DNA of 64,000 bases. Source: Candidatus Levyibacteriota bacterium. GTDB lineage: Bacteria; Patescibacteriota; Microgenomatia; Levybacterales; UBA12049. Under the pieces are notes generated by a model. That model searched no databases. It was not told the DNA's origin and worked only from the letters and a program-made list of their open reading frames with translations. The stretch is from contig DAIDHL010000005.1 of the NCBI GenBank assembly GCA_027459745.1, forward strand, positions 646 to 64,645, written 5' to 3'. Both the position numbers and the translations under genes were made by a program. Within the stretch, counting starts at the first letter, position 1, and every line of letters begins with the position of its first letter. Shown here piece by piece: positions 6,722 to 64,000 of this stretch.

Positions 6722-6728
6722 TTGCTTA

Positions 6729-8429: not shown

Positions 8430-8435
8430 ATGTTC

Positions 8436-9977: not shown

Positions 9978-10063
9978 GGTTTGATTATAAATTCAAACAA
10001 CAATATTAGCAAATGATAGAACATCTCATTGGTATTTCTGAATTCATGAGGTAAAATAGCAAT

Positions 10064-12654: not shown

Positions 12655-12659
12655 ATTAT

Positions 12660-42661: not shown

Positions 42662-42703
42662 TAGTACTAGTTATATAGGCAAAACATGAACAGAAAATGA
42701 CAT

Positions 42704-42713
42704 TTGCTATAAT
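42704..42713 (+). promoter_or_regulatory. Extended -10 promoter element 'TTGCTATAAT' 7 nt upstream of the regulator ATG (predicts leaderless mRNA)
   Basis: Sequence 'catTTGCTATAATcagctacATGagaatactag'. Confidence 0.5.
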
Positions 42714-42720
42714 CAGCTAC

Positions 42721-43392: not shown

Positions 43393-43394
43393 CT

Positions 43395-44411: not shown

Positions 44412-44469
44412 CACTCTCAATTTATACATCAGCGTGACAAAATAAATAAATCTGCTAAGATGTCCTCTC

Positions 44470-45552: not shown

Positions 45553-45600
45553 ATTTAATATAACAATGCTCTTGCAATGCATCCTCATAAAGACTAATAT

Positions 45601-47040: not shown

Positions 47041-48566
<1,526 letters not shown>

Positions 48567-48567
48567 G

Positions 48568-49041: not shown

Positions 49042-50551
49042 TACTTTACTACATACTTGGAATGAAATAGGTTACGTACAAGAAGTGAATGGTTCACTTC
49101 TAACAGTTGATGGTCTGCCCAAGGCCAAAATGAACGAGGTTGTGCTCTTGGAATCTGGAGAATTAGCCCAAGTCTTTTCTTTGCAGAAAGATAGGGCTAT
49201 GTTGTTGTTGTTCTCGCGCCACTCTATCAATATCGGAACTCGTGTAGTCAGAACCGGGGAAACTCTCGATATTGAAGTAGGAAATTTTTTATTAGGAGCA
49301 TGCATTGATCCTTTAGCCAAACCTATTATCGCTAGTTTAACTCCCTCTAATTCAGAAAAGCGACCAATTGAAGTTAGAGCTAAAGGTATTGCGGAGAGAG
49401 AAAAAATCACACAGCCTTTTGTCAGCGGAGTATCTATTGTGGATATGCTTATCCCTTTGGGTAAAGGCCAAAGAGAGCTGATTATCGGTGATCGAAAAAC
49501 CGGAAAAACATCTTTTCTTTTGCAAACTGTTTTGAGTCAAACAAAAAGCGGAACGGTGTGTATTTATGCCATGATCGGTAAACAGCAAAATGAAATCAAT
49601 AACCTAATTAATTTCTTAAAGGAAAACAAGATTATGGATCAAACAGTACTGGTGGTCTCTTCTCGTCATGATCCCGAAGGTTTAATTTACCTGACTCCCT
49701 ACACTGCTATGACTATCGCTGAGTATTTTCGCGATCAGGGTAAAGAAGTCTTGTTAGTCATGGATGATTTAACTACACATGCCAAGGCATATCGCACAAT
49801 TTCTTTGATGGCTAAAAGATTCCCAGGTAGAAGCTCCTATCCAGCTAATATCTTTTATACTCACGCCAGGCTATTGGAGCGTGCAGGAAATTTCAAACAA
49901 GATGGTAAAGTCAATTCGATTACCTGCTTGCCGGTGGCTGAAACAACCAACGGAGATTTATCCGGCTATATCCAAACAAATCTGATGTCCATGACCGATG
50001 GTCATATTTTCTTTGACGTCAATCTTTATTCTGCAGGACGTCGTCCGCCTATTAACTCATTTTTGTCCGTAAGTAGAGTCGGCAGACAAACACAAACCCC
50101 ACTAGGACAATCAATTGCCCGGGAATTAAATAGTTTTCTGACACTTCTGGAAAAATCAGAAAAGTATTCACATTTTGGCGCAGAAGCGACTATGAATATC
50201 AAAGATACTCTCTCTTTTGGCAGTAAGATAATTGCTTTTTTTAACCAGTCTACAGACGTATCAATGCCTTTGCCCTTGCAAATGTTTGTCTTTGCACTAC
50301 TGTGGGCCAGATATTTCCAGGCTTTATCAATACCTGAACAAGAAGAGAAAATTAGTGTAATTAGAAAATTATATTTTTCTCAAAAAGAAATTCAGACATT
50401 TGTCGACAATCTTATTGTCAGTTCCGATACTCTTAATCACCTTTTGACACAACTTAATACACAAGATGCTAATATAAAGAAGTATTTTACGGTCAGTCAG
50501 CCGACATTTAAACCAACTAACACCTATGAAGGACCAAGCAATACAAAATAA
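49028..50551 (+). CDS. atpA: F-type ATP synthase F1 subunit alpha
   Basis: 507 aa. 'PLGKGQRELIIGDRKTGKTS' is the alpha-subunit P-loop signature. RBS 'AAGGAG' upstream. Confidence 0.95.
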   Translation: MPDFDTLLHTWNEIGYVQEVNGSLLTVDGLPKAKMNEVVLLESGELAQVFSLQKDRAMLLLFSRHSINIGTRVVRTGETLDIEVGNFLLGACIDPLAKPIIASLTPSNSEKRPIEVRAKGIAEREKITQPFVSGVSIVDMLIPLGKGQRELIIGDRKTGKTSFLLQTVLSQTKSGTVCIYAMIGKQQNEINNLINFLKENKIMDQTVLVVSSRHDPEGLIYLTPYTAMTIAEYFRDQGKEVLLVMDDLTTHAKAYRTISLMAKRFPGRSSYPANIFYTHARLLERAGNFKQDGKVNSITCLPVAETTNGDLSGYIQTNLMSMTDGHIFFDVNLYSAGRRPPINSFLSVSRVGRQTQTPLGQSIARELNSFLTLLEKSEKYSHFGAEATMNIKDTLSFGSKIIAFFNQSTDVSMPLPLQMFVFALLWARYFQALSIPEQEEKISVIRKLYFSQKEIQTFVDNLIVSSDTLNHLLTQLNTQDANIKKYFTVSQPTFKPTNTYEGPSNTK

Positions 50552-51416
50552 TTTTAACGATTTGAAAGATATGAACACTATCGTTTTGACTTATGAAGAA
50601 GTGGCGGCAATTCGCATGCAAAGAATCCGTTCGGTCGTTTTGCAAAAAAGATCATTCGTGGAAGAGTTACAGCACGTTTACAGTGTGGTAAGAAGGATGT
50701 ACAAAAATGATATTTTGGACTTACTGAAAAAGAAAAAAATAGCTGATACCAGAGTTCTCAATCGCAGAAATGGTAAAACCATTGCCGCTTTTATCGGAGC
50801 CAATACTGGTCTTTATGGAGATATTGTGAGAAAGACTTTCGAATATTTTTATAATGAAGTCCAGGACCATCCTGAATATGATTTAGCGATTATCGGCAGA
50901 ACGGGGAAATTATTAGCTGAGGAATATCAGATGAAACAGGCTATACAATATATTGACCTCTCTGATCAAGCCATCCAAAAGGAAGAGTTGAATGGCTTAA
51001 TTTTGACCTTGTTACAATATGAAAATGTCATTTTATATCACGGAGAATTTAAGAATATGCTGCATCAGGATGCGATCGCTTCCAGATTTGATGAGTCATC
51101 CACTCAACCTGCAACCGATGAGAACTCCGCTGAGACTCAACATCAGAAAAAAGAAAAATGGTTAGTTGATCCATCCTTGGAAGAATTACTTAATTTTTTT
51201 GAATCGGAACTATTCTCTTCGTTTGTAGTGCAGACAATCGGCGAAGGTCAATTGGCTAAGTTAGCCTCCAGAATTGATACACTAGAGCAAGCGACCGAAC
51301 ATATTCAATTAGAAGTAGAAAAAGCTGGTCGCAAACTGGATCAGTTAAATCATGAGATACTAAATAAAAAACAAAACGACATGCTAAGCGGAATGATGGT
51401 TTGGAATATACAATAA
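50526..51416 (+). CDS. atpG: F-type ATP synthase subunit gamma
   Basis: 296 aa between alpha and beta. N-terminal 'IVLTYEEVAAIRMQRIRS' resembles the gamma 'ITKAMEMVAASKMRK' helix. C-terminal helical region. Confidence 0.7.
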   Translation: MKDQAIQNNFNDLKDMNTIVLTYEEVAAIRMQRIRSVVLQKRSFVEELQHVYSVVRRMYKNDILDLLKKKKIADTRVLNRRNGKTIAAFIGANTGLYGDIVRKTFEYFYNEVQDHPEYDLAIIGRTGKLLAEEYQMKQAIQYIDLSDQAIQKEELNGLILTLLQYENVILYHGEFKNMLHQDAIASRFDESSTQPATDENSAETQHQKKEKWLVDPSLEELLNFFESELFSSFVVQTIGEGQLAKLASRIDTLEQATEHIQLEVEKAGRKLDQLNHEILNKKQNDMLSGMMVWNIQ

Positions 51417-51418
51417 TT

Positions 51419-52810
51419 ATGAATACTAAAGGAAAAATAATTAATATTAAAGATCAGATTGTTGAAGTTGAATTCATGGATAGCAATGCACCCAAACTGC
51501 ATGATCTATTGTATTTGGAAGAGGATAAAAACTCTTTACTAGAAGTTACCGGATCCTCAGCTCCCTCTCAGTTTTACTGCATGATTCTCAAAGGAGCTGA
51601 TAATTTTTACCGTGGTGCACCGGTTATAAATAGTGGTTCAGGTCTGACTATTCCCATCGGAAATGAGACTTTGGGCAGAGTCATTGATATCTTTGGCACA
51701 CCTATTGACGGTAAGGCAGAAATTAAAACAAATAACCATCACCCTATCTATAAAGATCCCCCGCCGTTGGAGTCAATTGCACCCAAAACAGGTGTTTTGG
51801 AATTGGGGATTAAGGTTATAGATTTTTTTGCTCCCATGCTGCAAGGTGGCAAATTAGGAATCCTGGGAGGCGCTGGTGTAGGAAAAACTATTTTATTAAC
51901 CGAAATCTTGCACAATGTCGTTATCTTAAACAAAAACAAAAGTGTATCCGTATATACGGGTGTGGGAGAACGTACTAGAGAGGGACAGGAATTGGTGGAA
52001 TCCCTGGCGGAAGGTGATGTCCTAAAGTCGGCTGCACTAATCTATGGAGCAATGGGTGAGAGCCCAGCAATTCGTTATTTAACAGCTTATGCCGGTATAA
52101 CTATGGCTGAAGGTTTTAGAGATGTGGAAAAAAAGGATGTCCTCTTTTTTGTAGATAATGTTTTTCGTTTGGCCCAAGCTGGAAACGAACTATCTATGCT
52201 GGCAAATACCATCCCTTCAGAAGACGGCTATCAGCCGAAATTGGATAGTGAAATGGGTACTTTTCATGAAAGACTAGTATCCACTAAAGATGCAAACATT
52301 AATACTATTGAGGCTATTTATGTCCCCAATGATGATATTACTGACCAGGGAGTACAGGCTATTTTCCCTTATCTTGATTCAATCATTGTATTATCAAGAA
52401 ATGTCTATCAGCAGGGATTTTTGCCAGCTGTAGATATCATGTCCAGCGGTTACTCCAAGGCTTTGACGCCTACAATTGTGGGAGAAAAACATTATTCCGC
52501 AGCGATTGAGGCACAACAATTGCTAAAAAAAGCTGCTTCCTTGGACCGTATCGTCTCCTTAATCGGTGAGTCAGAATTGTCAGCTGATGATCAGGTAACT
52601 TACAGACGAGCACAAAAGTTAAGAGCATATATGACTCAAAGCTTCTTCACAGCCGAAAAGCAAACTGGACGCAAGGGTGTCTTCGTCCCGGCTAAAGATA
52701 CCGTAGATGATGTGATTGGTATCATGCACGGCGCATTTGACGAATTGACCGTAGATAAATTTATGTTTATTGGTAGTTTATCAGAAGTAAAAAAGCCCAA
52801 TGGATCCTAA
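51419..52810 (+). CDS. atpD: F-type ATP synthase F1 subunit beta
   Basis: 'MNTKGKIINIKDQIVEVEF' N-terminus, P-loop 'GGKLGILGGAGVGKTILLTEIL', and a DELSEED-region equivalent. First ATG follows the gamma stop directly. Confidence 0.95.
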   Translation: MNTKGKIINIKDQIVEVEFMDSNAPKLHDLLYLEEDKNSLLEVTGSSAPSQFYCMILKGADNFYRGAPVINSGSGLTIPIGNETLGRVIDIFGTPIDGKAEIKTNNHHPIYKDPPPLESIAPKTGVLELGIKVIDFFAPMLQGGKLGILGGAGVGKTILLTEILHNVVILNKNKSVSVYTGVGERTREGQELVESLAEGDVLKSAALIYGAMGESPAIRYLTAYAGITMAEGFRDVEKKDVLFFVDNVFRLAQAGNELSMLANTIPSEDGYQPKLDSEMGTFHERLVSTKDANINTIEAIYVPNDDITDQGVQAIFPYLDSIIVLSRNVYQQGFLPAVDIMSSGYSKALTPTIVGEKHYSAAIEAQQLLKKAASLDRIVSLIGESELSADDQVTYRRAQKLRAYMTQSFFTAEKQTGRKGVFVPAKDTVDDVIGIMHGAFDELTVDKFMFIGSLSEVKKPNGS

Positions 52811-53078
52811 AGAATATACCGATCAAGTCTATACCGTGACCATTCGCAGTACGGAAACAGTGTATGAGCAGGATTTACCTGTAAGTGCCGTTTCGTCAAA
52901 AAATGTTAACGGTCCTTTTGATGTACTTCCTTTGCATGCCGATTGTATCTCTATTGTGGAAGATTATTTGGCCTATTACCCCCAAAAAGGTGAACGCAAA
53001 TTAATCAATATTCATAAAGGAGTCCTCAGAGTAGAAAACGGCAATGTCTATATCTTCCTAGATACCCTGACAAAATAG
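52800..53078 (+). CDS. atpC: F-type ATP synthase subunit epsilon (beta-sandwich domain only, short)
   Basis: 92 aa. 'GPFDVLPLHADCISIV...GVLRVENGNVYIFLDT' parallels epsilon 'G.LGI.PGHAPL...GG.LEV....V.VLAD'. Confidence 0.65.
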   Translation: MDPKEYTDQVYTVTIRSTETVYEQDLPVSAVSSKNVNGPFDVLPLHADCISIVEDYLAYYPQKGERKLINIHKGVLRVENGNVYIFLDTLTK

Positions 53079-53172
53079 CGATATTGTTCGAATGAAATGA
53101 GAACTATAATTGTCTTGAATTGCAAGAATATCGTTCGAGCATCTCGAGAACTATACCCTTCTTTTACCCTCC

Positions 53173-56100
53173 CTACGGTGTTCCGGTCAGCGGAGCGAAC
53201 ATCATCGCGGCATTGTTGCTATACAACATTTTTACTTGGGTCTGCGTTAGTGCGTAATTATATAGTCTTACATCATCAATTTGACCTTTAAAATAATTCC
53301 CATCTTGTCTCGCTCCGATACGCAAGCCGGCAGCATAATTGGCAAGCGTTTTGGTCATAGTTGCTGTACCAATAGATACGCCATTAACATACATAACTGC
53401 TGCTGTACCAGCTTGAGTTATTACAACATGTGACCAAGTATTTAGAGGCAAACTATAATTTACTGACATGAGTGAGGCGCCGGTGTTACTTACTACCCAG
53501 ACGATTTGTTGCGTGCCACTGTTGTTGTACATTTCCAACACATAACCAGTTGTATTACCAGCATCATCGCGTTTATCGATGAGTCCATATACATTTCCAC
53601 TTGTTGGGTAGGAGCTAGGTTTTACCCAAAATGAGAGCGAAATATTGGAAGGCGTAAGCGCTGTATTGTCGGGTATGTTGGCATAATCATCGGTACCATC
53701 AAAGTTGAGGCTGGAATTGAATTTGCCATTCACTCCATTGTACCAAGCAGATGTAGATAATCCATCATTGCACGTCCCGGGAGATGTTTGTGAACCACTC
53801 GCACCAATAGTCAATGTTCCGTTGTATCCATTACCTGAGCTATCCCCAAGCAGATTTCCCTGACAGTCATCAAATTTCCACCAAGCCAACGGCGCTCCAC
53901 GATTATAATCCCAAAGGATTTGGGCAGCGCTTCGAGCATAACCATAAATTTTAAAACCTGAAATATAACCCTGTAAATAACCTCCACCTGTTTCTGCATC
54001 CGGCGCTCCTAAGAGAATGCCTTCTGTAACACTGGGTAATACTCCACTCAGTGAACCAGTTCCATCAGCATTCCCATCAACATATGTTCTAACCGTTGTG
54101 CCATCCCATGCACCAACTATAAAATGCCAATGATTATCGTTTATAGTACGAGATGTTACTGAACTTGCAGCTGATCCGCCGGAATTAAATGGAGTAAAAC
54201 GCAAAGTTCCATTCTGAGCTAGCAAAAATTGCCATACTCTAGTAGATGTTGTTGACATGTCTCTATTAACGATTTGATTTCCATAGCTGGTACCTGGCAC
54301 TTGAGATGTTTTTATCCAACCTTCGATAGTAACATAACTCATAGTGGGTAAACTTGATATGCCTACATAATTATTTGAACCATTAAGATAGGATAATTCT
54401 TGCTCAAGTCCATTAGGTCCTTTCGTAAAAAACCATTGATTTCCCAGAGTTCCATTCCAGGTACCATTATTTCCATTACCACTTGTATCATTAACTGTAA
54501 TCCCTTGTCCTTCTTGAAAATTCCACTCTCCCACTGGCGCAGCACACGAAGATGTATCACCTGGGACACAATATAGTTGATTTTGCGCTTGCGGCTGGTA
54601 GGTAGAAGAAGTACCCAAGACGCCGGCGGTAACACTCGAGCCTTGGTTGTAATAATCAGACTTAATTTGCCCTGCTGTGAGAGAATAGTTATACACTCTG
54701 ACTTCATCAATCGATCCATCCCAGATAAAATTACCGCTATTGGTGAAATTTCCAATATACGTTTCCGTAATTGGATTACTTAAGAATGTTCCATTCCAAG
54801 AAGATGTTGCACTCAGCGCACCATTGACATACAGAGACAATGTGCTGGTAGAGCTATTTGCAACCGCCGTGAGGTAATACCATTTCCCAATCGTCGGAGT
54901 AAAGTTAGCTTCTACCTCTGTCCAGATATTACCACTTTGGTCTATACCTGTGCGGAATTTATTACTAGTATCTCTTTCAATATTTAAGATTGATCCTATG
55001 GAATTATTCTCTGCATAGATCGCATTTTCTGTCCCGTCGTTATCATTAGACTTGACCCAGGCGCTAATCGTAAAGTTACTGGTATTCGCAACGATAGAAC
55101 CATTATAAGGAACGGCATACTGACTACTGCCATTCAGACTGAGTGCTTTCCCATTCACCGCGTCATTGGTCCACACCGGAGTACCGACAAGTGATGCATC
55201 ATAGGTACTTCCACCACTCCCACTATTGTGAGCAGTCGTGCCATAACCTTCATTAAATTTCCAATAACCTACTGGCCCAGCCCGGCTCCCAGCATCTACC
55301 AAATTGGTATCTCCTTCATTCATACCCTGCAAGACCTGAGTTTGAGAAATAGGATAATTATATATTTTTACTTCATCCATACTCCCGATGAAATGATTAT
55401 TCCCGTTCACATCAGTTCCCATATAAAGTGGCACACCTTGATTTAACAAAAAACTACCGGCTGAAGAGAGATCAGCTGTTGCTGGATAGTTTATTCCATT
55501 GACATACAGACTGATTGATGAACTTGCAGCGTTCCATACCATTGTAATGTATTGCCATTTTCCACCCGTCATAGTTGTATTTGTATGCACATTTAACTTT
55601 CCACCACTTGTATACACAGCCGCACACAAACTTTGCCCGGTTGCACCACTATATGCATTTCCACATTCTGAGATTACCCAACCATAACCTGTTGAGCTGT
55701 TTTGTGCAGCAAATATTTTTTGGGATACATTACCAGTTGGAGGTAATATCCAAGCAGACAGAGAAAAACTACCTGCGTTAAATGATGTACTGGTAGAGTT
55801 AGGAATGGAAATATTAGTAGTTCCGGGGAAAACACCTACTTCACTGTCAAACGCACCATACTTGCTAAAGGAATAATTTGAACTGGACCAAGTTCCATTA
55901 TTTCCATAACCTGATAAATCTTTTAATGTGTTTCCACTTCCTTCCTCAAAGTTATAGTATGCCACAGGCCCGGGCGTGTAACTATATAAATTCTGTACAT
56001 CTGTACTAGATAAAACACGGTTATAAACACGCATTTCATCAATCGATCCATTAAAAACTGCTCCTGCCCCATATGTGGCACCAATTTCGATGTTATAACT

Positions 56101-58644
56101 TGTAGTTATCGATGAAGTCAAACTATCATGTATAACAGTCATTGCTAATAATTTATTATCCAGGTATATTTTCATTCCAGCGGCTTTGCTAGATCCATCA
56201 TATGTCTCTACAATATGATGCCATTTACCATCATTCACAGTCACCGTACTTTGCTCGGAAATGAGGTTCGTGGTAGCATAATTGCTCGTCAAGCCCACTA
56301 TAATATAACCCGAGCTAGTTAATTGCAAATCCCATCCTTGATAAGCTGGCCCTCCTCCAGCTTTGGCAATAATAACAGGATTGGTAGAGACATTACTCGT
56401 CTTAATCCAATTACTTATAGAAAAAGTGTTCGTTCGGTCAAAGTTCATGCTACTGACATTGCCAGCATTTATATATTGAGTCGTCCCATTAAATGTTCCT
56501 GCATCTCCATATACACCACCTACAGTGGGTGTGCTACTATAACCCACGCCTGTCGCATTATTGCCATTCCCACTTGAATCAGTTACTTCACCAGAAACAT
56601 TATTATATGAGGCCTCATCCATTTTATAGTATGCTAACAAACCATTACTTAAAGTATAATTAGTTGACACGCCTAAAACTTCGCTTCCACTAATCGTAGT
56701 TCCACGACTGTTATAATCAGCCAGCACTTGTCCCAAAGATCTTGCATATCTATAATATTTCACCTCATCAATATATCCCTGAAAGTACTGTACATTGCCC
56801 ATTGCATACCCAATGTACGCACCCCCCAGAACTGTAGTTAAAGTGGTCGAAATACTTCCCGCATTCACGCCATTGATATACGCAGTTAAGACAGAACCTG
56901 TATATGTTAATTCAACGTGATTCCAATAATTTAAATTTAATTTTGAATTAGTAGTTAAAATATCATTACCATATCTGCCAATTTTAAGAGATCCATCCCC
57001 AGCCGCGCCATTTTCAGCAATAATCAGAGCATTATTGGTACCACTGGTTCCATAGGCAAAAGGAGTACCATAATTACCGGAAGCAAAAACAGTTGGTTTT
57101 ACCCATAGAGAAACAGAAAATGGATTGGCACCGGAAGCAAATTTACTGTCAGAAGCCGTAACGGCACTGCTGGCTCCATCAAAATACAAACATTTTCCGC
57201 TTATACATTGACTCTCTTGCTGCCAGGTAGGCTTTGTGGTACCGGATAACGTGGCATTATTTTTATTCGATGTGCTGTCATATGCTGTAACACCTTGCCC
57301 ATCATCAAATTTCCAATACGACACCGGTGCAGTACCCACCTCTTCTGATTGGAGAGAGTAGGTTATGTTATCGCCCGCTGTTTGAATAGCATAAGTATTT
57401 TTATAATCTAAGGCTACTTGTTGAGGGGTACGAACGTTATTATAAACGTGTACATCGTCTATCTGACCATTAAATAAACTGTCACCCGTCCATGAATTAT
57501 AACCGCTAATTTGCACAGGACCAGTGGTTAGTACACTACCACTAAGTGTATTAAACTGTGTAGTTGTAGATTGAGCTACGCCATCAATATATATAGAGAT
57601 TCCAGATGGAGAAGAGTTACCATTATATGTCGCAACTACATAATGCCAACTACCATTATTGACAGTTCCGGTTGTGTTGACTGATAGCTCATTTGAACTA
57701 TATGTATTAGTTAAATTAAGATTAACAGTACCCGATGTTGTTACTAAAAAAAAGATTCCCGGCCAAACGTTATTGGTTGTAAGAGCCTTGGAGTAAATAA
57801 TTTGCTGAGCGCTTGATGAGGTTTTAATCCAAGCTGTCAAACTAAAAGTATTGGTCTTGTCAAAAGCTAGAGTACTAACATTACCCATAGAAAGATATGC
57901 ATTGGTCCCATTGAATGTAGCATCTGAGCTATAAACTCCTGTTCCCCAGCTAGTTGTCCCACTCCAAGAACCATTATCAGCATATGCTGTAGAATCAATT
58001 GCTGATGTACCACTACCGTCATTCAATGTCCAATATCCCAGTAACCCGACTACATTATCAAAACCTTGAGTGGTTGAACCGGCTTTGGCGCTGGGGTTTC
58101 CGTAATACATATAAATATTATTAGTACCCGCTTGGAGACTATCGATCATTACCCAAACTTTGGTCGATGTTGTATTACAGCCCGAGTCAATATAATAACT
58201 TAAATTCTTCCCGCCTTCATTCGTAAAGCGTAGATCCTGACAATTGCTTTGCAATTTACCGGCAGAAATAAGTGTAGAAGTATTAAGTGCAAATGATTTC
58301 TGTATATTACTAACCGTAGCTCCTGTTGAATTGGTCACAATAATTCCTTCGCGATATGACCAATTGTTATCAAACCAAGCAGCTTGCACTGGTTTGATAT
58401 TTAACATTACCGTTATAAAACCTATCATCGAGAACAGAAAAAGAGAACCAATTATCAAGTATGAGTATTTGGTATGTGGTATTTTGTATTTGGTACGCAA
58501 CCCTTTCGTCATTGCAAGGAATCCCGATTTATCGGGAGACCGAAGCAATCTAGTCAATGATCTATTCTTTCTAGATTGCTTTACTAATGTTCGCAATGAC
58601 AGATTTATTTTAATTTTTAATAAATTCTTAAATCTTAATTTCAT
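53173..58644 (-). CDS. Giant membrane-anchored surface protein: DUF2341 domain followed by about 8 LamG (concanavalin-A-like lectin, Laminin_G_3) domains
   Basis: 1823 aa. N-terminal TM 'YLIIGSLFLFSMIGFITVML', then 'AAWFDNNWSYREGIIV' (the DUF2341 WxxxWxxR motif). Repeated LamG C-terminal motifs: 'FNGQIDDVHVYN', 'FNGSIDEMRVYN', 'FIGSMDEVKIYN', 'WDGSIDEVRVYN', 'LQGYISGFKIYGYARS', 'FKGQIDDVRLYN'. Alternative start 'MTKGLRTKYK' at 58512. Confidence 0.8.
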   Translation of the reverse strand: MKLRFKNLLKIKINLSLRTLVKQSRKNRSLTRLLRSPDKSGFLAMTKGLRTKYKIPHTKYSYLIIGSLFLFSMIGFITVMLNIKPVQAAWFDNNWSYREGIIVTNSTGATVSNIQKSFALNTSTLISAGKLQSNCQDLRFTNEGGKNLSYYIDSGCNTTSTKVWVMIDSLQAGTNNIYMYYGNPSAKAGSTTQGFDNVVGLLGYWTLNDGSGTSAIDSTAYADNGSWSGTTSWGTGVYSSDATFNGTNAYLSMGNVSTLAFDKTNTFSLTAWIKTSSSAQQIIYSKALTTNNVWPGIFFLVTTSGTVNLNLTNTYSSNELSVNTTGTVNNGSWHYVVATYNGNSSPSGISIYIDGVAQSTTTQFNTLSGSVLTTGPVQISGYNSWTGDSLFNGQIDDVHVYNNVRTPQQVALDYKNTYAIQTAGDNITYSLQSEEVGTAPVSYWKFDDGQGVTAYDSTSNKNNATLSGTTKPTWQQESQCISGKCLYFDGASSAVTASDSKFASGANPFSVSLWVKPTVFASGNYGTPFAYGTSGTNNALIIAENGAAGDGSLKIGRYGNDILTTNSKLNLNYWNHVELTYTGSVLTAYINGVNAGSISTTLTTVLGGAYIGYAMGNVQYFQGYIDEVKYYRYARSLGQVLADYNSRGTTISGSEVLGVSTNYTLSNGLLAYYKMDEASYNNVSGEVTDSSGNGNNATGVGYSSTPTVGGVYGDAGTFNGTTQYINAGNVSSMNFDRTNTFSISNWIKTSNVSTNPVIIAKAGGGPAYQGWDLQLTSSGYIIVGLTSNYATTNLISEQSTVTVNDGKWHHIVETYDGSSKAAGMKIYLDNKLLAMTVIHDSLTSSITTSYNIEIGATYGAGAVFNGSIDEMRVYNRVLSSTDVQNLYSYTPGPVAYYNFEEGSGNTLKDLSGYGNNGTWSSSNYSFSKYGAFDSEVGVFPGTTNISIPNSTSTSFNAGSFSLSAWILPPTGNVSQKIFAAQNSSTGYGWVISECGNAYSGATGQSLCAAVYTSGGKLNVHTNTTMTGGKWQYITMVWNAASSSISLYVNGINYPATADLSSAGSFLLNQGVPLYMGTDVNGNNHFIGSMDEVKIYNYPISQTQVLQGMNEGDTNLVDAGSRAGPVGYWKFNEGYGTTAHNSGSGGSTYDASLVGTPVWTNDAVNGKALSLNGSSQYAVPYNGSIVANTSNFTISAWVKSNDNDGTENAIYAENNSIGSILNIERDTSNKFRTGIDQSGNIWTEVEANFTPTIGKWYYLTAVANSSTSTLSLYVNGALSATSSWNGTFLSNPITETYIGNFTNSGNFIWDGSIDEVRVYNYSLTAGQIKSDYYNQGSSVTAGVLGTSSTYQPQAQNQLYCVPGDTSSCAAPVGEWNFQEGQGITVNDTSGNGNNGTWNGTLGNQWFFTKGPNGLEQELSYLNGSNNYVGISSLPTMSYVTIEGWIKTSQVPGTSYGNQIVNRDMSTTSTRVWQFLLAQNGTLRFTPFNSGGSAASSVTSRTINDNHWHFIVGAWDGTTVRTYVDGNADGTGSLSGVLPSVTEGILLGAPDAETGGGYLQGYISGFKIYGYARSAAQILWDYNRGAPLAWWKFDDCQGNLLGDSSGNGYNGTLTIGASGSQTSPGTCNDGLSTSAWYNGVNGKFNSSLNFDGTDDYANIPDNTALTPSNISLSFWVKPSSYPTSGNVYGLIDKRDDAGNTTGYVLEMYNNSGTQQIVWVVSNTGASLMSVNYSLPLNTWSHVVITQAGTAAVMYVNGVSIGTATMTKTLANYAAGLRIGARQDGNYFKGQIDDVRLYNYALTQTQVKMLYSNNAAMMFAPLTGTP

Positions 58645-58685
58645 AATTCTTTATTTATAAGTCCCAATTAAATCGTATCCACCCC

Positions 58686-61600
58686 CTAGTTAATGATCCA
58701 CCAGTTAAAGACAACCGGCGTATTCTTTGGCGTGTCCATATCAACGGTAAATGATGTTTTGGCTGACTTCTTAGTTACATATAACGCTCCTGATCCCTTG
58801 GTTTGTGAAGTCACAAAAATAAGCGAAGTTGATGAAACAATATTGGTAGGAATCGTTACACTAGTCAGACCTGCAGAAATTGTCGCCACTCCCACACTTG
58901 GATTCAAAGCATCAGGTGTAATATTTACCTTGCTGGCAGTTAATGTTCCCTGCAAGCTTACATCTCCCGTCGTACTAATTATTACACTGCTACCTTCCAA
59001 TTGAATGTCAGCTAAAGCTTCTGACTGTAATTGCAAAGGCTGACCAAGACTATCAATCTTGCCATTTAATCCATCGATTGTAATCAAGCCGTCAGTAATT
59101 ATTCCAGTCACTCCTACATCATTAAGAGTAGTTCTCCCACCCACCATCAGATCACCAGAAATTGTGGCTGTCTTGATATCCAGTTGGTCCGAGCTAGCAA
59201 AATTAGCTGAACCGGTGGCAAATAATTGATTTGGTAATGCGCTCATGGTAGCATTTTCCAAAGCTGATAATCGAGCAGACAGTGAGGCAATCAAGGCTGC
59301 GTGGTCATCAAGTGTGGCATGGATGGCAGTATTATCTGTTTGCAAACCAGCGACTTGTTGCTCTAAGGTTGGCGTACCCGTGGTACCAGAATTAGGCGTG
59401 GTGGTCGAAACATTTCCACTACTGGTTATATATACGGTTGGATCATACCAAGACACATTTGAATAGACGAGAATTGTCCCTACATCATTGGGGTTAGAAT
59501 CGCTATAAATAGCTAATGCTCGACCGATAATTACTCCTGCAGCAGTTGCTTTGACTGCCACTCCGGGAGTAGATGAGGATGTCAAAGGATCACCAACATT
59601 AATTGTTCCATTTGCACTACTCACATTCACGGGAACTCTTCCAACCAAAGCGACTGGATATAAATTTGGATGAGTAGAATCAGTCTTGGCTTCTGAGTTA
59701 ACAGTTACACCAGGACTACTGGAAATTATTCCCAGTAACCCAGTTTGATTTTGAGAAGTGGCCTTTACAATAGCATTGGAATTACCGTCATTTGCCATAA
59801 CTACCACATCGCCAGGAATAAGTGTTTGAGAAGAAATATAATTTTCCGCTACGTCTGCTCCAGTAATTGTCGTCGAAGTAGCATAAATAGTTCCTGCTGT
59901 ACTTCCGGAACACGCGGTAGACATCGTTGCCTTCACACAAAGAGACGCGACGATACGTGTATTACCGCTATTATCAATTCTAAAGAGAGGCGTCCCAGAT
60001 GAACTGGCAGTAAATATATCTGCTGATTCTGTTTGATTGAGCGTTAAGAGAGCCTTGCCAAATACTTGACTGTTTGTCATATAGGCTTGACCAAACAAGT
60101 TTGGCGCGATTGGCGGATTTTGCGCCCCCAAGACAAATTGTCCGGAAACAGTGGCCGCCCCTGTAGTCATAAATGATTCAGCATCCGCTACCACCATACC
60201 CTTGTTGTATGGGTCTAGAATCAAATTACTCGAATTGAACGGTTCACCCGGACGAATATAAATATTGGAAGAAGACTTAATAAATGAATTCATCGGATTG
60301 GTCAAATTAATATCATATGCCACAGATAAATCACCCGGTGTAGTCACTTGTAATGGTTCACTGGCAATGACCTGATTTTGTGTCACAGCAAACACACTGG
60401 TGCCGGCATTTTGTACATTGAAGATATTAGTTAGAGTTCCATTAGAACCCACATTCAAATCCAATAAATCACCCGTGGCAGTAGTAGCAACCGTGGGGTT
60501 CCATGCGAGACTTGACAAGCCACCCGTAAAGGCTGAGTTACCGGTATAGCTAAGATTTAACAAACTGCCTGAAGTCAAAGCATTTGAATTGGAAACCAAT
60601 GAAAGTTCATTGCCGGTAGTTAATAAATTGGCACTAAGAGTAGCCACGTTGCCGGTGGTTTCGGAACTGGTTTGAATTAAATCACCATTATATACGTTGA
60701 ATGCGAATTTGGCAGAAGAGGTTGCGCTACCGCCAAATAACACATCTTGCGTTAAATTACCTTCGGTTATCAAAGCACCAGTCGAATTAAATGGACTACT
60801 GCCTCCTCCACCACCACCCGGACAACTGGCACTACCTGTGACAATACCATTTACAGTGGTGACACAAGCCGCACTGGCAATCGTCGCCCCGGCATTACCA
60901 TTCATCGTCAAACTCCCTGTGGACAAAGCCAAAACTCCTGTCCCATTGCCAGCCTTCAAGGTCAGATTGCCAGTCGTCGCATTCCCGATATTCAAACCCT
61001 GGTTGGCAGTGGTAGCCAAAGTACCATCGGCAGTAATATATAATCCACCAGCTACTCCGGCCGAAATACTTGCAACTGGTGTTCCTGAATTCACATTTAT
61101 GAAAGCAAATTTAGCTGAGGGAGTAGAAACTCCTCCAAGCAGTAAATCTTGTGTGGTAATAGCCTCGCTTATTGTCCCTCCGATAGAGTTTAAAATATTT
61201 GCTCCACCGCCACTTGGACAAGCACCACTTCCGGTAACAATACCACCTACTGTCGTGACACAACCGGCACTTGCAATCGTCTGTCCTACACTACCACCAG
61301 CATAAAAAGTATTGGCAAAAATGTTCCTAAAAGCTATTGCACTCGTACCCAAATCTGTAACGTTATTACTGTTTGGACCTACATACCCACCAGCTATATT
61401 ATTTAAAGGTGCTAATAAAATATTTCCAGTTGTAGCAGAACCAAGCGTCAAGCTATGATCGTTGGTCGTAGCCAAAACTCCCAACCCAGTCAGATAGGCT
61501 GCATTATTTCCACTAGCCGCAGAGATACTGGCAGTAGGAGTTCCCGAATTAATATTTATAAATGCAAAATCTGCCGAAGCTGTTGAAGTTCCACCCAACA

Positions 61601-64000
61601 ACAAATCTTGGGTCGTATTATTTTCTATAATACTGCCACTGAGTGTGTTGAAGGGACTACTATTGACGGCTGGACAGGCTGCACTACCCGTTACGATACC
61701 GTTACTTGTCGTTACGCATGATGCAGAAGCAACTGTTGAACCTGCAGTACCATTCATCGTCAAACCACCAACAGATAATACTAGCAAGCCAGCGCCATTA
61801 TTAGGTGAAAGGGTAATATTACCGGTACTCGCTCCTCCAATAGTCAAATTTTGCTTGGCGGTGGTAGCCAATGTACCGGTTGAAGTAATATATAGACCTC
61901 CTGCAGATCCAGCAGACAGACTGGCGGTAGGTGTACCAGTATTTACATTCAAAACAGCAAATTTGGCCGCAGCTGTGGATGTTCCTCCAAGTAAGAAATC
62001 TTGCGTGTTAATCAGTTCTTGAATCGTTCCACTAACAGCCTGGAAAGGAGAACTAACAGTACCTGCTCCACAACTTCCCCAAATTGGAGCAGAGCCTCCC
62101 GAGATTAGACATTGACCAGAAGTATTGGTTGAAAGTGCCGTAACTACACCATTGGCTGAATTATCAGCATACAAAACAGTATTGTTCGCCCCACCATAAC
62201 CAGGAAGGTTAATAGCTTCACCACTTCTGCCCAAAGATAAGGTAGTAGCGTTTGTATTACCAATATTTAATATTCCTGATGTAATTGTATCTAGACCAGA
62301 ACCTGAACTTACCTTCACATTACCATTCTGACTGACAATAAATCTACTTAATCCACTGGTACTGGCTGCTAATAAATCACCACTGCCTGAATTATCAACA
62401 ATCAAACCAGCCATATTAGTGGATCCGGAGATAGAAGCAATTGGAGTAGTAGCTGAATTGCCTCTAACATCCACCGTCGCCAACGGAGCAATCGTATTAA
62501 CTCCCATGCTGCCAAGTCCACTTATAGTCATCAAGGCTGTAGTGGCACCATTATATACAGTCATACCACCAGTTCCTGCTATTCCGTTGGTAGCATCATA
62601 ATTTATGGCCAGCATACCTGCACCCTGTGAGTTCAAATTCAAATTGGCATTACCCAACGCAGCCGCAAAGCTACTAGCAGCGCTAGTCAAAGTAGAAGCA
62701 CTAGTCTTGGCTTCAAAATCATCGAAATTGGCTGTAAATTGTTGTGTTTGTGATACAGTTACCCTAACACGTATGCCAGTCACAGCAGTTCTTGAGGGAA
62801 TTGAGGTAATATTACAATCCATTTTTTGCCAACTACTTGGACTGGTGATATTCATCGTACCCACCCCGTTAAAACTACAGGTCTGCCAATTTGGTGACCC
62901 ACTAGTTCCGGTATTAATATCCATAGTCAGGTATGATCCGGCAAGAGTAGAATACGCATAAAAAACAATATCATTCATGTTACTCATATCCATAGGCGAA
63001 AAGTTGGTTCTAGCAACATTATAAATTGTTTGGTCTGAATTAATTTTTGCTTTATAAATAGTGGCTTGTGTTGAGGTTGTCATGCCACCCACCAAGTATC
63101 CATAATTATTGCCACTATTATCTGTAAACCCAAATGCTCCAGCATTGGCTGTAGCAGTGCCTAGCTGATAATTGCCCATTGTACTGACAGACGTTACATT
63201 CCCACTTCCATCAAGTGTGGCCTTATATACAGTTGTTTGTTTGGTACCGCCAGTTGTGGTTCCACCTAGTATATATATGTAATTATTTGCACCAATTGTC
63301 TGGAAGAAAGCAGATTCACCATATAATGCTGTAGGTAATGTTGCTTGTCCACTGGTTGTTAGGCTTGTAATATTGCCATTAGCGCTGTTAATTGTGCCTT
63401 TATAAATCGTATTCTGCGCAGTCGTCCCATTTTCTCCACCAATTACCCAAATATAATTATTCCCACCGATATTCCCTGTGACAGTTGCATGGTGAGAAAT
63501 TCCAGTAGTTAATTGTGATTGACCAGATGCCGTAGGTGTTCCCAAAGTACCTGTTAACGATGCTGTAATATTATAAACTGTAGTTTGATCAGATGTTCCA
63601 TTATTGCCTCCAATCACATATATATATGTACTACCATTGATTATCACTGCATTAGCTGTTGCACCAAATAATGCTTGAGGTAGGGGATTTGCAGCCGAAG
63701 AAAATGCAGCCACATTCCCAGTATTATAATCTACAGTAGCCTGACTTATGGTAGATTGAGCAACTCCAGATGTATTTTCCCCTCCCATACTGTATAACAT
63801 CGTTGAATATGGAATAGATAAATATGTAGTAGATCCTCCTGATTGACCTCCTACTGTTGATATAGTTCCCGGCGTAACCGATTTCACATAATTTAAGAGG
63901 ATTTTGCCTGCTCCACCTCCCATTGAACCAGTACCTCCATTTGCAGATAATGAACCATTATTTACAACATTCGTTGCAGCAAGATGAATAAGTCCTCCAC
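58686..64000 (-). CDS. Giant surface protein, 5'-partial (continues beyond the window end): Kelch-like beta-propeller repeats, about 140-aa tandem beta-rich repeats, and a C-terminal conserved beta-rich module with coiled coil
   Basis: More than 1770 aa. The frame stays open upstream of the ORF-track Met to position 64000. N-terminal 'YIYVIGGNNG / YIWVIGGENG / YIYILGGTTTGG / YGYLVGGMTT' Kelch-like repeats. Repeats 'GGTSTA.AKFAFINVNSGTP.ASISAG..GGLYIT..GTLATT' occur 3-4 times. C-terminus 'GADVAENYISSQTLIPGDVVV...VALVGRVPVNVS' then coiled coil 'LQTDNTAIHATLDDHAALIASLSARLSALENA'. Confidence 0.75.
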   Translation of the reverse strand, partial: GGLIHLAATNVVNNGSLSANGGTGSMGGGAGKILLNYVKSVTPGTISTVGGQSGGSTTYLSIPYSTMLYSMGGENTSGVAQSTISQATVDYNTGNVAAFSSAANPLPQALFGATANAVIINGSTYIYVIGGNNGTSDQTTVYNITASLTGTLGTPTASGQSQLTTGISHHATVTGNIGGNNYIWVIGGENGTTAQNTIYKGTINSANGNITSLTTSGQATLPTALYGESAFFQTIGANNYIYILGGTTTGGTKQTTVYKATLDGSGNVTSVSTMGNYQLGTATANAGAFGFTDNSGNNYGYLVGGMTTSTQATIYKAKINSDQTIYNVARTNFSPMDMSNMNDIVFYAYSTLAGSYLTMDINTGTSGSPNWQTCSFNGVGTMNITSPSSWQKMDCNITSIPSRTAVTGIRVRVTVSQTQQFTANFDDFEAKTSASTLTSAASSFAAALGNANLNLNSQGAGMLAINYDATNGIAGTGGMTVYNGATTALMTISGLGSMGVNTIAPLATVDVRGNSATTPIASISGSTNMAGLIVDNSGSGDLLAASTSGLSRFIVSQNGNVKVSSGSGLDTITSGILNIGNTNATTLSLGRSGEAINLPGYGGANNTVLYADNSANGVVTALSTNTSGQCLISGGSAPIWGSCGAGTVSSPFQAVSGTIQELINTQDFLLGGTSTAAAKFAVLNVNTGTPTASLSAGSAGGLYITSTGTLATTAKQNLTIGGASTGNITLSPNNGAGLLVLSVGGLTMNGTAGSTVASASCVTTSNGIVTGSAACPAVNSSPFNTLSGSIIENNTTQDLLLGGTSTASADFAFININSGTPTASISAASGNNAAYLTGLGVLATTNDHSLTLGSATTGNILLAPLNNIAGGYVGPNSNNVTDLGTSAIAFRNIFANTFYAGGSVGQTIASAGCVTTVGGIVTGSGACPSGGGANILNSIGGTISEAITTQDLLLGGVSTPSAKFAFINVNSGTPVASISAGVAGGLYITADGTLATTANQGLNIGNATTGNLTLKAGNGTGVLALSTGSLTMNGNAGATIASAACVTTVNGIVTGSASCPGGGGGGSSPFNSTGALITEGNLTQDVLFGGSATSSAKFAFNVYNGDLIQTSSETTGNVATLSANLLTTGNELSLVSNSNALTSGSLLNLSYTGNSAFTGGLSSLAWNPTVATTATGDLLDLNVGSNGTLTNIFNVQNAGTSVFAVTQNQVIASEPLQVTTPGDLSVAYDINLTNPMNSFIKSSSNIYIRPGEPFNSSNLILDPYNKGMVVADAESFMTTGAATVSGQFVLGAQNPPIAPNLFGQAYMTNSQVFGKALLTLNQTESADIFTASSSGTPLFRIDNSGNTRIVASLCVKATMSTACSGSTAGTIYATSTTITGADVAENYISSQTLIPGDVVVMANDGNSNAIVKATSQNQTGLLGIISSSPGVTVNSEAKTDSTHPNLYPVALVGRVPVNVSSANGTINVGDPLTSSSTPGVAVKATAAGVIIGRALAIYSDSNPNDVGTILVYSNVSWYDPTVYITSSGNVSTTTPNSGTTGTPTLEQQVAGLQTDNTAIHATLDDHAALIASLSARLSALENATMSALPNQLFATGSANFASSDQLDIKTATISGDLMVGGRTTLNDVGVTGIITDGLITIDGLNGKIDSLGQPLQLQSEALADIQLEGSSVIISTTGDVSLQGTLTASKVNITPDALNPSVGVATISAGLTSVTIPTNIVSSTSLIFVTSQTKGSGALYVTKKSAKTSFTVDMDTPKNTPVVFNWWIIN
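60700..62100. repeat. Intragenic tandem DNA repeats (about 400-450 bp units, diverged) inside the giant surface-protein gene
   Basis: Similar DNA blocks start near 60821 ('ggacaactggcactacctgtgacaataccatttacagtggtgacacaagc'), 61217 ('ggacaagcaccacttccggtaacaataccacctactgtcgtgacacaacc') and 61671 ('ggacaggctgcactacccgttacgataccgttacttgtcgttacgcatga'). The spurious plus-strand ORFs 60697..61305 and 61645..62022 with near-identical peptides reflect the same repeats. Confidence 0.7.

Follow-up and report, generated by a model that had tools for sequence, protein, structure and literature searches.

Two consecutive giant genes on the minus strand of the window (the whole 64,000-nucleotide stretch of DNA analysed here) probably code for native proteins of the cell surface in a bacterium of the Patescibacteria (CPR), and one of the two would be a fibre assembled by a phage-type intramolecular chaperone. 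By analogy with the phage systems considered below, this bacterium seems to build its surface fibres as phages build theirs. That the gene products are cell-surface fibres and not parts of a prophage is most likely because of the chromosomal context of the genes, their matching GC3, and the neighbourhoods of their relatives, which contain no phage structural genes. The sequence of gene 2 supports the design of an attachment fibre, an architecture already proposed in a sequence-only reading of this DNA and one that a beta-rich shaft, a propeller and a chaperone of the phi29 gp12 type would fit. The same reading had described two successive minus-strand proteins separated by 41 bp, for which the exact limits are given in Table 1, and had spoken of modular surface proteins; indeed, both products are very large, rich in Ser, Thr, Gly and Asn, modular in composition, and exported or anchored.

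Table 1. Features of the two genes, ordered by position in the window (residues of gene 2 are counted from the first visible one)
Feature	Residues	Position	Strand	Basis
Gene 1, 1823 aa, exported or anchored, DUF2341 and seven LamG	1-1823	53173-58644	minus	ORF, translation, Pfam
Seven Laminin_G_3 (PF13385; concanavalin-like lectin fold)	204-1810	53215-58035	minus	Pfam
DUF2341 (PF10102)	134-193	58066-58245	minus	Pfam, E 1.4e-12, 48.3 bits vs cutoff 23.4
Gene 1 signal peptide or signal anchor	hydrophobic 62-81	58381-58461	minus	read from translation
Spacer of 41 bp, gene 2 stop to gene 1 ATG		58645-58685	both genes minus	read from sequence
Gene 2, 3' part, last 1770 codons and stop of 4313	1-1770	58686-64000	minus	open to window edge
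C-terminal beta-sandwich, K1-lyase_C, ending in conserved NWWIIN		58689-58904	minus	
Long alpha-helix, probable coiled coil	1545-1587	59238-59366	minus	AF2, module residues 227-269
phi29 gp12-like autochaperone beta-barrel (Peptidase_G2-like)	1382-1520	59439-59855	minus	
Predicted autocleavage site A1381/D1382-V-A-E1385	1381/1382 (full-length 3924/3925)	59844-59858	minus	profile alignment
Degenerate fourth repeat unit and beta-rich linker	1067-1318	60045-60800	minus	HMM domain, P0167 3611-3710, E 1.9e-7
Repeat block R1-R3	650-1066	60801-62051	minus	DNA and protein repeats
Repeat R3	933-1066	60801-61202	minus	DNA and protein repeats
Repeat R2	781-932	61203-61658	minus	DNA and protein repeats
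Repeat R1	650-780	61659-62051	minus	DNA and protein repeats
Degenerate unit before R1, C-x12-C loop at its end	521-649	62052-62438	minus	23-28% identity to R1-R3
Beta-rich domain without assignment, common to P0024-P0030	336-520	62439-62993	minus	blastp map
Kelch-type propeller blades	56-335	62994-63833	minus	profile-level support only

Gene 2 had been recognized as 5'-partial, and its missing part is supplied by the full-length product P0167 (4313 aa), whose positions 2544-4313 are 100% identical to the 1770 residues visible here. The stop codon occupies 58686-58688, and no other in-frame stop lies between 58686 and the window end. What is visible corresponds to the C-terminal 41% of the protein, an observation that had escaped the earlier reading; the whole gene spans 12.9 kb and would start about 7.6 kb past the window end. 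P0167, gene 1 and atpA lie on one NCBI contig of 102,115 bp, and the exact 1823-aa product of gene 1 is also present in the public protein collection. The N-terminus of P0167 consists of MKKK followed by a hydrophobic signal/anchor.

The case for a phage-type chaperone comes from the C-terminal part of gene 2, a module of roughly residues 1319-1770. The module 'GADVAENY...VALVGRVPVNVS' and the coiled coil, both of which had been pointed out before, are present, the former in the sequence and the latter as an AF2 helix with pLDDT of 80-91 along most of its length. In the alignment of the family with phi29 gp12 (Peptidase_G2; PDB 3gqh, 3gq7, 6qz9), the motif 'aDlAE' falls on 'S/DFAE', so that gene 2 has D-x-x-E at the aligned S691/D692 site, and the crystallized fragment 3gqh begins at that very D. 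Conservation of D-x-A-E is almost complete, with D kept in 96 of 98, A in 95 of 98 and E in 98 of 100 domain copies (80 genome loci), and it is likewise near-invariant in a set of 105 copies. The D692 and E695 residues of gp12 are said to play catalytic roles. The mature gp12 chain extends to residue 691 (PMC6542822). A separate observation, missed when the sequence was read on its own, is that the conserved C-terminal motif is where an assembly chaperone of phage type is predicted to cut itself.

Assignment of the barrel is based on fold, profile and relatives, as PF11962 (Peptidase_G2) does not match the core of gene 2 even at E<=10. The same model is matched by 7 of the 20 aligned relatives (best E 3e-6) and, in precomputed annotation, by P0067, while the family profile recovers gp12 chains with E values of 2.7e-4 and 7e-4. 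The best Foldseek matches of the C-terminal module are phage structural proteins, and in the AF2 model, a monomer with pTM of 0.43, the barrel has the fold of the gp12 C-terminal fragment. Downstream of it, K1-lyase_C (PF24146) scores 29.6 bits against a cutoff of 27, with module residues 381-450 aligned to positions 1-69 of the 70-position profile. The last 70 residues of gene 2 superpose on the structures of the K1 capsule lyase and the K64-1 S2-4 depolymerase (PDB 7w1c, 9k4a); however, only this terminal, non-catalytic domain is common to them, and no match to the lyase beta-helix was found in gene 2. The earlier proposal to look for tail-fibre and S74 chaperone domains was well aimed: the type indicated is phi29-gp12-like, followed by K1-lyase_C, and not S74, since Peptidase_S74 (PF13884) has no match in gene 2 or in full-length P0167. 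Peptidase_S74, known from phage K1F and others and from the eukaryotic MYRF, follows the logic proposed for the module of gene 2, that of a C-terminal self-cleaving trimerization chaperone for beta-helical fibres, but its fold and catalytic mechanism are unrelated. In P0025, S74 occupies the place of the G2-like barrel before the same C-terminal 210 residues, and several relatives from the repeat family also bear PF13884.

Both in phi29 and in K1F the C-terminal domains are autochaperones that are cut off after folding of the trimer (PMC3357383), and in phi29 the chaperone is needed for trimer assembly before its removal (PMC3357383, PMC6542822). In gene 2, as in phi29 gp12, the chaperone is placed where a long, beta-rich fibre would have its distal end. 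Its product differs, however, in that it is no virion protein but has 4,313 residues and a signal/anchor that ties it to the cell, and in having about 250 residues (coiled coil and K1-lyase_C) after the domain that in phi29 forms the end of the chain; among 43 complete relatives, 186-727 residues separate the start of the domain match from the C-terminus. It also differs in that its sequence alone falls below the Pfam model and in that its cleavage is a prediction.

One plausible mechanism would be the following. The fibre of gene 2 would be held at the membrane by the N-terminal signal/anchor, and its shaft would be long and beta-rich, composed of lineage-specific repeats of 130-150 residues closed by disulfide loops, and would be joined by a Kelch-type propeller, while the distal C-terminus would carry the phi29-gp12-type barrel, then the coiled coil, then the K1-lyase_C beta-sandwich. 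After Sec export, by analogy with the phage proteins, the barrel and the coiled coil would align three chains and nucleate folding of the shaft. The conserved Asp and Glu of D-x-A-E might then cut between A1381 and D1382, after which the C-terminal fragment of 389 residues could be freed or retained non-covalently as the fibre tip matures. Any fragment freed in this way would be much larger than that of phi29 and may have a role of its own. The identities of the domains, the fold match, the conservation of the motif, the chromosomal setting and the spread of the family are observed; we infer that the proteins are located at the cell surface, that the fibre is a cleaved trimer, and that their role is that of adhesins or of host contact.

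Considerably less likely is the possibility that the two genes specify a structural envelope or an S-layer-type coat instead of specific adhesins, and that the C-terminal module only oligomerizes and stays uncleaved. PGAP names relatives of the repeat family 'S-layer family protein', and the nearest solved relative of the gene 1 LamG domains, 4qvs (E 1.4e-9), is called 'S-layer domain-containing protein'. Phage cement/decoration proteins use this barrel fold for trimers that are not cleaved, hence the fold alone does not imply cleavage. A paralogous barrel occurs in a 266-aa membrane protein that heads the F-ATPase cluster of the window, and it has no D-x-A-E motif; this could be counted in favour of a coat, yet it also fits a role of the motif that is specific to the fibre proteins. 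Autocleavage of gp12 is reportedly dependent on ATP, which would be lacking outside the cell, and this counts for an uncleaved module too. On the other hand, near-invariance of D-x-A-E in the fibre proteins is hard to explain unless the motif has a catalytic or structural role there, and searches turned up neither SLH nor any other domain known to anchor S-layers. Moreover, the relatives are mosaic and rapidly shuffled, combining 2-19 repeat units with modules that can replace one another, which one would sooner expect of proteins that interact with hosts than of those that form S-layer lattices.

The putative shaft contains three full repeat units of 131-152 residues, which share 53-65% protein identity, score 140-150 bits apiece with the repeat HMM, and each terminate in a C-x13-C loop. 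In the DNA the repeat families recur every 393-459 nt, with starts near 60.8, 61.2 and 61.7 kb and identity of 60-76%, so the tandem beta-rich repeats placed there by the sequence-only reading are borne out, as three full units with degenerate units on both flanks. The region of the degenerate fourth unit and linker is common to P0039 and P0260. The repeat family comprises 861 representative proteins with 2-19 units per protein, the named relatives being Patescibacteria, and no significant match to it was found in PDB, Pfam or NCBIfam. The AF2 model of the repeat/shaft region was poor (pLDDT 52, from an alignment of 54 sequences).

Judged by their sequences, the repeats of gene 2 are real and old duplications. 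An assembly artefact was considered and rejected, because units diverged to this degree assemble uniquely. The earlier suggestion that variation in repeat number could produce antigenic or phase variation is not supported either: the units have no more than 18 bp in exact agreement, which makes such variation unlikely at this level of identity, and TRF found no simple-sequence tracts of note, which could serve slippage, inside either gene. This corrects the view of such diverged repeats as a phase-variation device.

Upstream of the repeats, five blades of the 'YIYVIGG' type can be counted at intervals of about 55 residues, although closure of the ring is predicted only. The Kelch-like blades noted earlier find support at the profile level, as profile A6 (residues 56-335 with homologues) gives 103 Kelch matches in PDB, the best being KLHL12 (2vpj) at E 9e-15, but not by Pfam with the single sequence, which misses every Kelch cutoff (Kelch_6, 21.5 vs 25.3 bits). 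The homologous protein P0030 does pass the cutoff for Kelch_1. Apart from this shortfall of the sequence alone, gene 2 differs from known Kelch propellers in its longer blades and in their being embedded in what would be an extracellular fibre. The beta-rich domain at residues 336-520 gave no family match, and no PDB match was obtained for gene 2 by phmmer.

On the basis of its domains, gene 1 most likely specifies a surface protein that binds carbohydrates and is produced along with the fibre. It was expected to contain a transmembrane anchor, DUF2341 and about eight LamG domains; a signal peptide or signal anchor, DUF2341 and LamG domains are present, though the number of LamG units is seven, and both Laminin_G_3 and DUF2341 exceed the Pfam cutoffs, which supports the lectin fold predicted for it. 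Laminin_G_3 is matched in seven stretches (E 2.6e-160, 528 bits vs cutoff 27.6), in agreement with seven starts of the form 'W/Y-x-F-D/E-E/D-G' spaced by about 230 residues, and pairwise identity of the units is 21-35%. From the sequence, a possible signal-peptidase site, VQA/AW at 88/89, may be proposed, and the junction '...A-A-W-[FY]-D-x-N-W-x-Y-R' of gene 1 is also found in the DUF2341-LamG genes of two related loci (L037 and L040). For large DUF2341 proteins of Patescibacteria a role in adhesion has been put forward (PMC11809585), and in a cultured Saccharibacterium lectin-like envelope proteins are essential (PMC10633639).

Two other identities were tried for gene 1 and rejected. Similarity to the TafC fimbrial protein (NCBIfam NF052521) reached 199 bits, half of the 410 required, and is of LamG level only. 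MshQ-type proteins, the tip adhesins of pili, also have DUF2341 followed by Laminin_G_3, but no type IV pilus genes were found to accompany gene 1: families of the pilus assembly ATPase, platform and prepilins were all missing from the 42 window ORFs scanned (those of at least 120 aa). Furthermore, unlike MshQ-type proteins, gene 1 has a Sec-type signal/anchor at the N-terminus and not a prepilin leader, as well as seven LamG units and a fibre gene as its partner.

The F-ATPase cluster of the window directly adjoins the gene pair. The glycosylation island, which the earlier reading had called adjacent, actually lies at 283-13418, about 40 kb away; glycosylation of the two surface proteins would be conjectural. 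No terminator-like site was found in the spacer, and scans for promoters and terminators gave signals of background level only. The order fibre gene, then DUF2341-LamG gene recurs in four related loci (L012, L034, L037 and L040), but such a pair is present in only 4 of the 71 loci with enough downstream sequence. GC3 is 0.30-0.31 for both genes, equal to that of the other window genes, and for this reason recent horizontal acquisition was rejected.

These data also bear on the possibility that gene 2, perhaps with gene 1, encodes a fibre of a prophage, a tailocin or a phage-derived particle, i.e. a virion receptor-binding protein residing in the chromosome, to which we ascribe a low probability. 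The C-terminal module is phage-like in fold and sequence, tblastn detected the barrel in the jumbo phages PA5oct (in a 'virion structural protein') and Atu_ph07, some relatives are named 'tail fiber domain-containing protein' by PGAP, and P0001 and P0002, to which the C-terminus is most closely related, lie near integrases, transposases and resolvases. In addition, the flank upstream of gene 2 lies beyond the window. Among the PHROG families that gene 1 resembles is a 'virion structural protein', but the PHROG matches cover LamG domains only. Virion fibres need no N-terminal signal, whereas the full-length protein has a signal/anchor, and complete relatives (279-3713 aa) start with signal peptides, TM helices, or HTH and TM. 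Phage structural families of Pfam (capsid, portal, terminase, tail, baseplate) were found neither in the window nor in six related loci, where the neighbours are the F-ATPase cluster (window), housekeeping genes (L004-L006) and mobile-element genes (L001-L003), and GC3 is that of the rest of the window. A secreted or surface tailspike-like depolymerase digesting host capsule or cell-wall polysaccharide, with gene 1 as its carbohydrate-binding partner, is still less probable: a Gly-rich, beta-helix-like segment just N-terminal of the window part of gene 2 and the LamG and sialidase-N-like matches of gene 1 would agree with it, but no catalytic glycosidase or lyase family was found in all 4,313 residues, and the depolymerase matches cover non-catalytic C-terminal domains only, at large rmsd.

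Cell-surface fibres assembled by a phage-type chaperone would not be confined to this locus. The barrel domain was found at 294 loci in GTDB species genomes, and the best 80 of these 294 are almost all in Patescibacteria. Loci L012 and L056, from MAGs, are saccharibacterial examples with a G2-fibre gene. Many members of the family have a single TM helix that connects the fibre with a DNA-binding domain in the cytoplasm, of MerR/HTH_17 or integrase-SAM-like type, although the protein of gene 2 itself has no HTH. A much more speculative proposal, which we regard as improbable, is that the giant membrane-anchored fibres of Patescibacteria all belong to a single modular system, taken over from the tail fibres of phages and equipped with a self-cleaving chaperone of either the G2 or the S74 type, in which TM-linked HTH domains couple surface events to regulation and the 266-aa barrel protein docks the fibre. 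If this were true, the TM-HTH fibres would link host contact or cleavage to gene regulation, as a bacterial counterpart of the MYRF principle, and the related barrel on the membrane protein heading the F-ATPase cluster could be a docking site for the fibre.

A life attached to other microbes is presumed for Patescibacteria, and we know of no account of how most of them recognise and hold their hosts; as far as we are aware, tests have been confined to type IV pili and a few lectin-like proteins, in Saccharibacteria. The locus described here is a member of a large family without a model in the copies of Pfam, NCBIfam and PDB that were searched, and no description of its architecture was found in the literature on Patescibacteria/CPR outside subscription journals. 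For annotators, it means that 'tail fiber domain' matches in these genomes need not indicate a prophage. Since cleavage is predicted at one exact position that hardly varies, experimenters have a site to mutate, while expression of the soluble C-terminal module provides a second experimental handle. Judging from their sequences, fibres that are anchored to the cell and may reach several thousand residues would share, in these bacteria, the self-cleaving assembly domain of phage tail spikes.

The C-terminal module of gene 2 contains a domain which resembles the autochaperone of bacteriophage phi29 gp12. In the AF2 model, based on an alignment of 24 sequences, a confident beta-barrel (module residues 60-200, pLDDT 82-98) is followed by a 43-residue helix, a less certain stretch and a confident terminal beta-sandwich. 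The barrel profile matches a tailspike 'chaperon domain' as well as gp12 chains (E 2.7e-4 and 7e-4), Pfam Peptidase_G2 is matched by 7 of 20 relatives, both PF11962 and PF24146 are present in one related protein (P0067), and the last 70 aa of gene 2 exceed the Pfam cutoff for K1-lyase_C. The motif G-A-D-V-A-E-N-Y aligns on W-S-D-F-A-E-Y-F of gp12, whose crystallised cleaved fragment starts at that Asp. The last residue of mature gp12 is 691 (PMC6542822), and its C-terminal domain is an autochaperone, required for trimer folding and later removed (PMC3357383).

When one genome of each GTDB species was scanned, relatives of the barrel were found encoded at 294 loci, and the best 80 of these belong nearly all to Patescibacteria, of many classes. 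Several are titled 'uncultured Gammaproteobacteria', but the records are automated MAG entries, including a 0.9-Mb chromosome, and we suspect mislabelling. Among 105 domain copies from the barrel loci, the D-x-A-E motif is almost invariant (Asp in 96/98, Ala in 95/98, Glu in 98/100 copies). In contrast to phi29 gp12, the barrel is never the terminal domain in this family, since in the 43 complete ORFs (279-3713 aa) its match begins 186-727 aa ahead of the C-terminus. In one relative, P0025, Peptidase_S74 stands in place of the G2-like barrel, ahead of the common C-terminal 210 aa. Judging from these sequences, two unrelated self-cleaving chaperones appear interchangeable at one position, which would therefore serve assembly; this is the strongest indirect argument for such a role.

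The N-terminus of complete relatives is a signal peptide, a TM helix, or a TM helix preceded by a MerR/HTH_17 or integrase-SAM-like domain. In many relatives of the fibre, a cytoplasmic MerR/HTH_17 domain, or one like the N-terminal SAM-like domain of phage integrases, precedes one TM helix and a giant extracellular fibre; the former domain accounts for the PGAP name 'MerR family transcriptional regulator'. This layout would join a membrane-tethered DNA-binding domain to a surface fibre. The gene 2 protein differs in that its N-terminus holds only a signal or anchor.

Features of genes 1 and 2 and N-terminal types of gene 2 relatives (P, proteins; L, genome loci); gene 2 residues are numbered over the 1770 visible in the window
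Feature	Position or members	Strand	Remark
Gene 1	53173-58644	(-)	1823 aa, long reading frame
DUF2341 of gene 1	aa 134-193		Pfam
Seven Laminin_G_3 of gene 1	aa 204-1810		units of ~230 aa; Pfam E 2.6e-160
Gene 2 stop codon	58686-58688	(-)	41 bp upstream of gene 1 ATG
Kelch-type blades of gene 2	aa 56-335		profile with homologues
Beta-rich domain of gene 2	aa 336-520		no assigned family
Three full tandem repeat units of gene 2	aa 650-780, 781-932, 933-1066
C-terminal module of gene 2	aa 1319-1770
HTH-type N-terminus	P0028, P0030, P0039, many of P0049-P0148; L037, L043, L046
Integrase-SAM-like N-terminus	P0035, L009, L020, L052, L073

As the sequence-only reading had stated, gene 2 is truncated at its 5' end, its frame being open to the window edge, and the spacing of the two genes was given exactly. 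The full-length protein is available: residues 2544-4313 of P0167 (4313 aa), recovered when the repeat profile was run as an HMM against 1.84 billion representative proteins, match the visible 1770 with 100% identity, and a single 102,115-bp NCBI contig carries P0167 together with the products of gene 1 and of the window's atpA. P0167 starts with MKKK and a 17-residue hydrophobic segment, a predicted signal peptide or signal anchor; its part beyond the window holds more units of the gene 2 repeat, seven 'GNVGIGTTSP..LDV' motifs and more Cys-x12-16-Cys loops.

The similarity to gp12 raises the possibility that gene 2 encodes part of a virion, and integrases and transposases lie near its two closest C-terminal relatives. 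However, the window is ordinary chromosome, with F-ATPase genes, Lon, two-component systems, glycosyltransferases and tRNAs. No phage morphogenesis genes were found in six loci of relatives, three of which have housekeeping neighbours (tRNA synthetases, GreA, MreB, F-ATPase cluster). The GC content of 53173-64000 is 0.40-0.44, against 0.31-0.37 in the rest of the window, but the excess is located in codon position 2 and reflects Ser/Thr/Ala/Gly-rich proteins; GC3 of both genes (0.30-0.31) is similar to that of the ATPase, Lon and kinase genes, which argues that they are native to the genome. Taken together, export signals, native codon composition and chromosomal context strongly favour a cell-surface protein over a virion component.

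The proposed surface protein is a mosaic, its propeller, repeat and C-terminal blocks each having different best relatives. The Kelch-like blades noticed earlier fall under Pfam cutoffs in the gene 2 sequence alone, whereas a profile including homologues matches 103 Kelch propeller structures (best E 9e-15). The tandem repeats are evident in both DNA and protein, as three full units (53-65% identity in protein, 60-76% in DNA, period 393-459 nt) with degenerate units on both sides, and a C-x13-C loop closes every full unit. A DsbA-like thioredoxin-fold oxidoreductase with an N-terminal extension is encoded at 27888-28586 (-) and could make the fibre's many Cys-x12-16-Cys loops. The repeat has no match in Pfam, NCBIfam or PDB; at E<=1e-3 its family comprises 861 representative proteins of up to 7,448 aa with 2-19 units each, named members being mostly Patescibacteria (Levybacteria, Saccharibacteria, Dojkabacteria and others), with a few partial fragments labelled otherwise. 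Phase variation by repeat number, suggested from the sequence, is not supported: the longest exact match between units or anywhere in 53173-64000 is 18 bp; TRF reported no relevant tandem tract in the two genes. The spread of 2-19 units is evolutionary shuffling, not a switch.

The product of gene 1 is a predicted exported or anchored lectin-fold array, as indicated by its DUF2341 and LamG domains and an N-terminal hydrophobic stretch, which is followed by VQA|AW. The array itself was foreseen, with about eight domains; seven units are present, delimited by seven conserved starts and five conserved 'IDE/DV-x-x-Y' ends, and their pairwise identity is only 21-35%. Other concanavalin-fold families give weaker, overlapping Pfam matches. 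The junction 'AAW[FY]D-x-NW-x-YR' recurs in related genes of other genomes, and the nearest solved relative is the LamG domain of an 'S-layer domain-containing protein'. A TafC identity was rejected (NCBIfam score half the cutoff), and PHROG matches were at LamG level only. Large DUF2341 proteins of Patescibacteria have already been noted, with a proposed role in adhesion (PMC11809585); gene 1 adds another member to a known kind. Its 5' end and the spacer (58465-58660) contain AT-rich micro-repeats, 7-nt GTATTTG x4.4 and 15-nt TAATTTCATAAATCT x2.7. An alternative start at M45 (58512) would leave a spacer of 173 bp, a longer one; in the public record the protein has 1823 aa.

In 4 of the 71 loci that extend far enough downstream, a G2-fibre gene is closely followed on its own strand by a DUF2341-LamG gene: L012 (Saccharibacteria), L034, L037 (Daviesbacteria; 192-aa ORF in between) and L040, where 2 nt separate genes for a 3,794-aa fibre and a 2,256-aa DUF2341-LamG protein. 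The paired LamG proteins are collinear with gene 1 (30-35% identity), and the fibres are alike only in their C-terminal blocks. The linkage is recurrent, far from universal; co-expression of genes 1 and 2 is plausible.

The first gene of the F-ATPase cluster, 47086-47886 (+), encodes a 266-aa protein without a Pfam match, in which a beta-barrel lies between a signal peptide and two C-terminal TM helices. Hhalign identifies the barrel as a homologue of the gene 2 G2-like domain (probability 99.1%, E 1.6e-18); D-x-A-E is absent, the alignment beginning past the motif. The helices resemble ATP synthase subunit c only weakly (PDB E 0.28-0.44); they have an 'ALGRNP' loop, and helix 2 lacks an acidic residue. 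The window showed no canonical gene for subunit c or a. Orthologues of the 266-aa protein adjoin atpA/G/D in L006, L009, L012, L060, L062, L072 and L077. Giant fibre genes lie less than 10 kb from the F-ATPase cluster in the window (47086-58644), in L006, which holds a Kelch-block relative, and in 7/80 G2-domain loci, against ~1.6/80 expected by chance (20-kb span, ~1-Mb genome, relatedness of genomes ignored); the loci concerned are L006, L009, L012, L034, L060, L062, L072 and L077.

A glycosylation/polysaccharide island does exist at 283-13418, but ~40 kb away rather than adjacent. It holds three GT2 genes, a Polysacc_synt_3 flippase and four consecutive GT-C-type membrane glycosyltransferases (PMT_2/PTPS_related, 513-566 aa); GT-C/PMT_2-like paralogues number four to five, with one weak sub-cutoff GT87-like match, and a further PMT_2 gene lies at 40034-41371. 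A link to the Ser/Thr-rich products of genes 1 and 2 is possible. At 34637-38535 (+), the genes for a 773-aa GT2 (Glyco_trans_2_3, processive synthase type) and for a chitinase-like GH18 protein of 526 aa, which has two CBM5/12 modules, overlap by 4 nt; they may form a synthase/hydrolase pair for a chitin-like polymer. A gene at 30374-31960 (-) encodes 528 aa with GLUG motifs and, at the C-terminus, a LysM domain; the product is probably a surface protein that binds peptidoglycan. Two-component genes (15434-17785, 24439-27484, 42697-46998) encode four histidine kinases, two with PAS/GAF arrays, and two OmpR-type response regulators, a density that seems high for 64 kb of a presumed small CPR genome.

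One plausible mechanism, judging from its sequence, would have the fibre exported by Sec and held by its N-terminal anchor. By analogy with phi29 and K1F, trimerisation would be seeded by the C-terminal barrel and coiled coil, and the alignment together with the motif invariance points to autocleavage at A1381|D1382. Weak points are that the barrel fold occurs in non-cleaving proteins too, that the chaperone-like domain is not terminal, and that the shaft gave no usable structural model; autocleavage in phi29 is ATP-dependent, which also counts against the cleavage model. The propeller and LamG domains may be displayed to bind carbohydrate or a partner, as their domain families suggest; in a cultured Saccharibacterium, lectin-like envelope proteins are essential (PMC10633639).

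Some gene 2 relatives already bear pipeline labels such as 'tail fiber domain-containing' or 'S-layer family' protein. In the literature covered, we found no description of a G2-type chaperone barrel in cell-anchored giant proteins, of its invariant cleavage motif, of its interchange with S74, or of the 130-150-aa repeat family. The components of the gene 2 family are familiar, and its putative function is deduced from sequence. The family is large, and its named relatives belong to Patescibacteria, an important group about which little is understood. It suggests a concrete mechanism by which their surface fibres may be assembled, one that can be tested.
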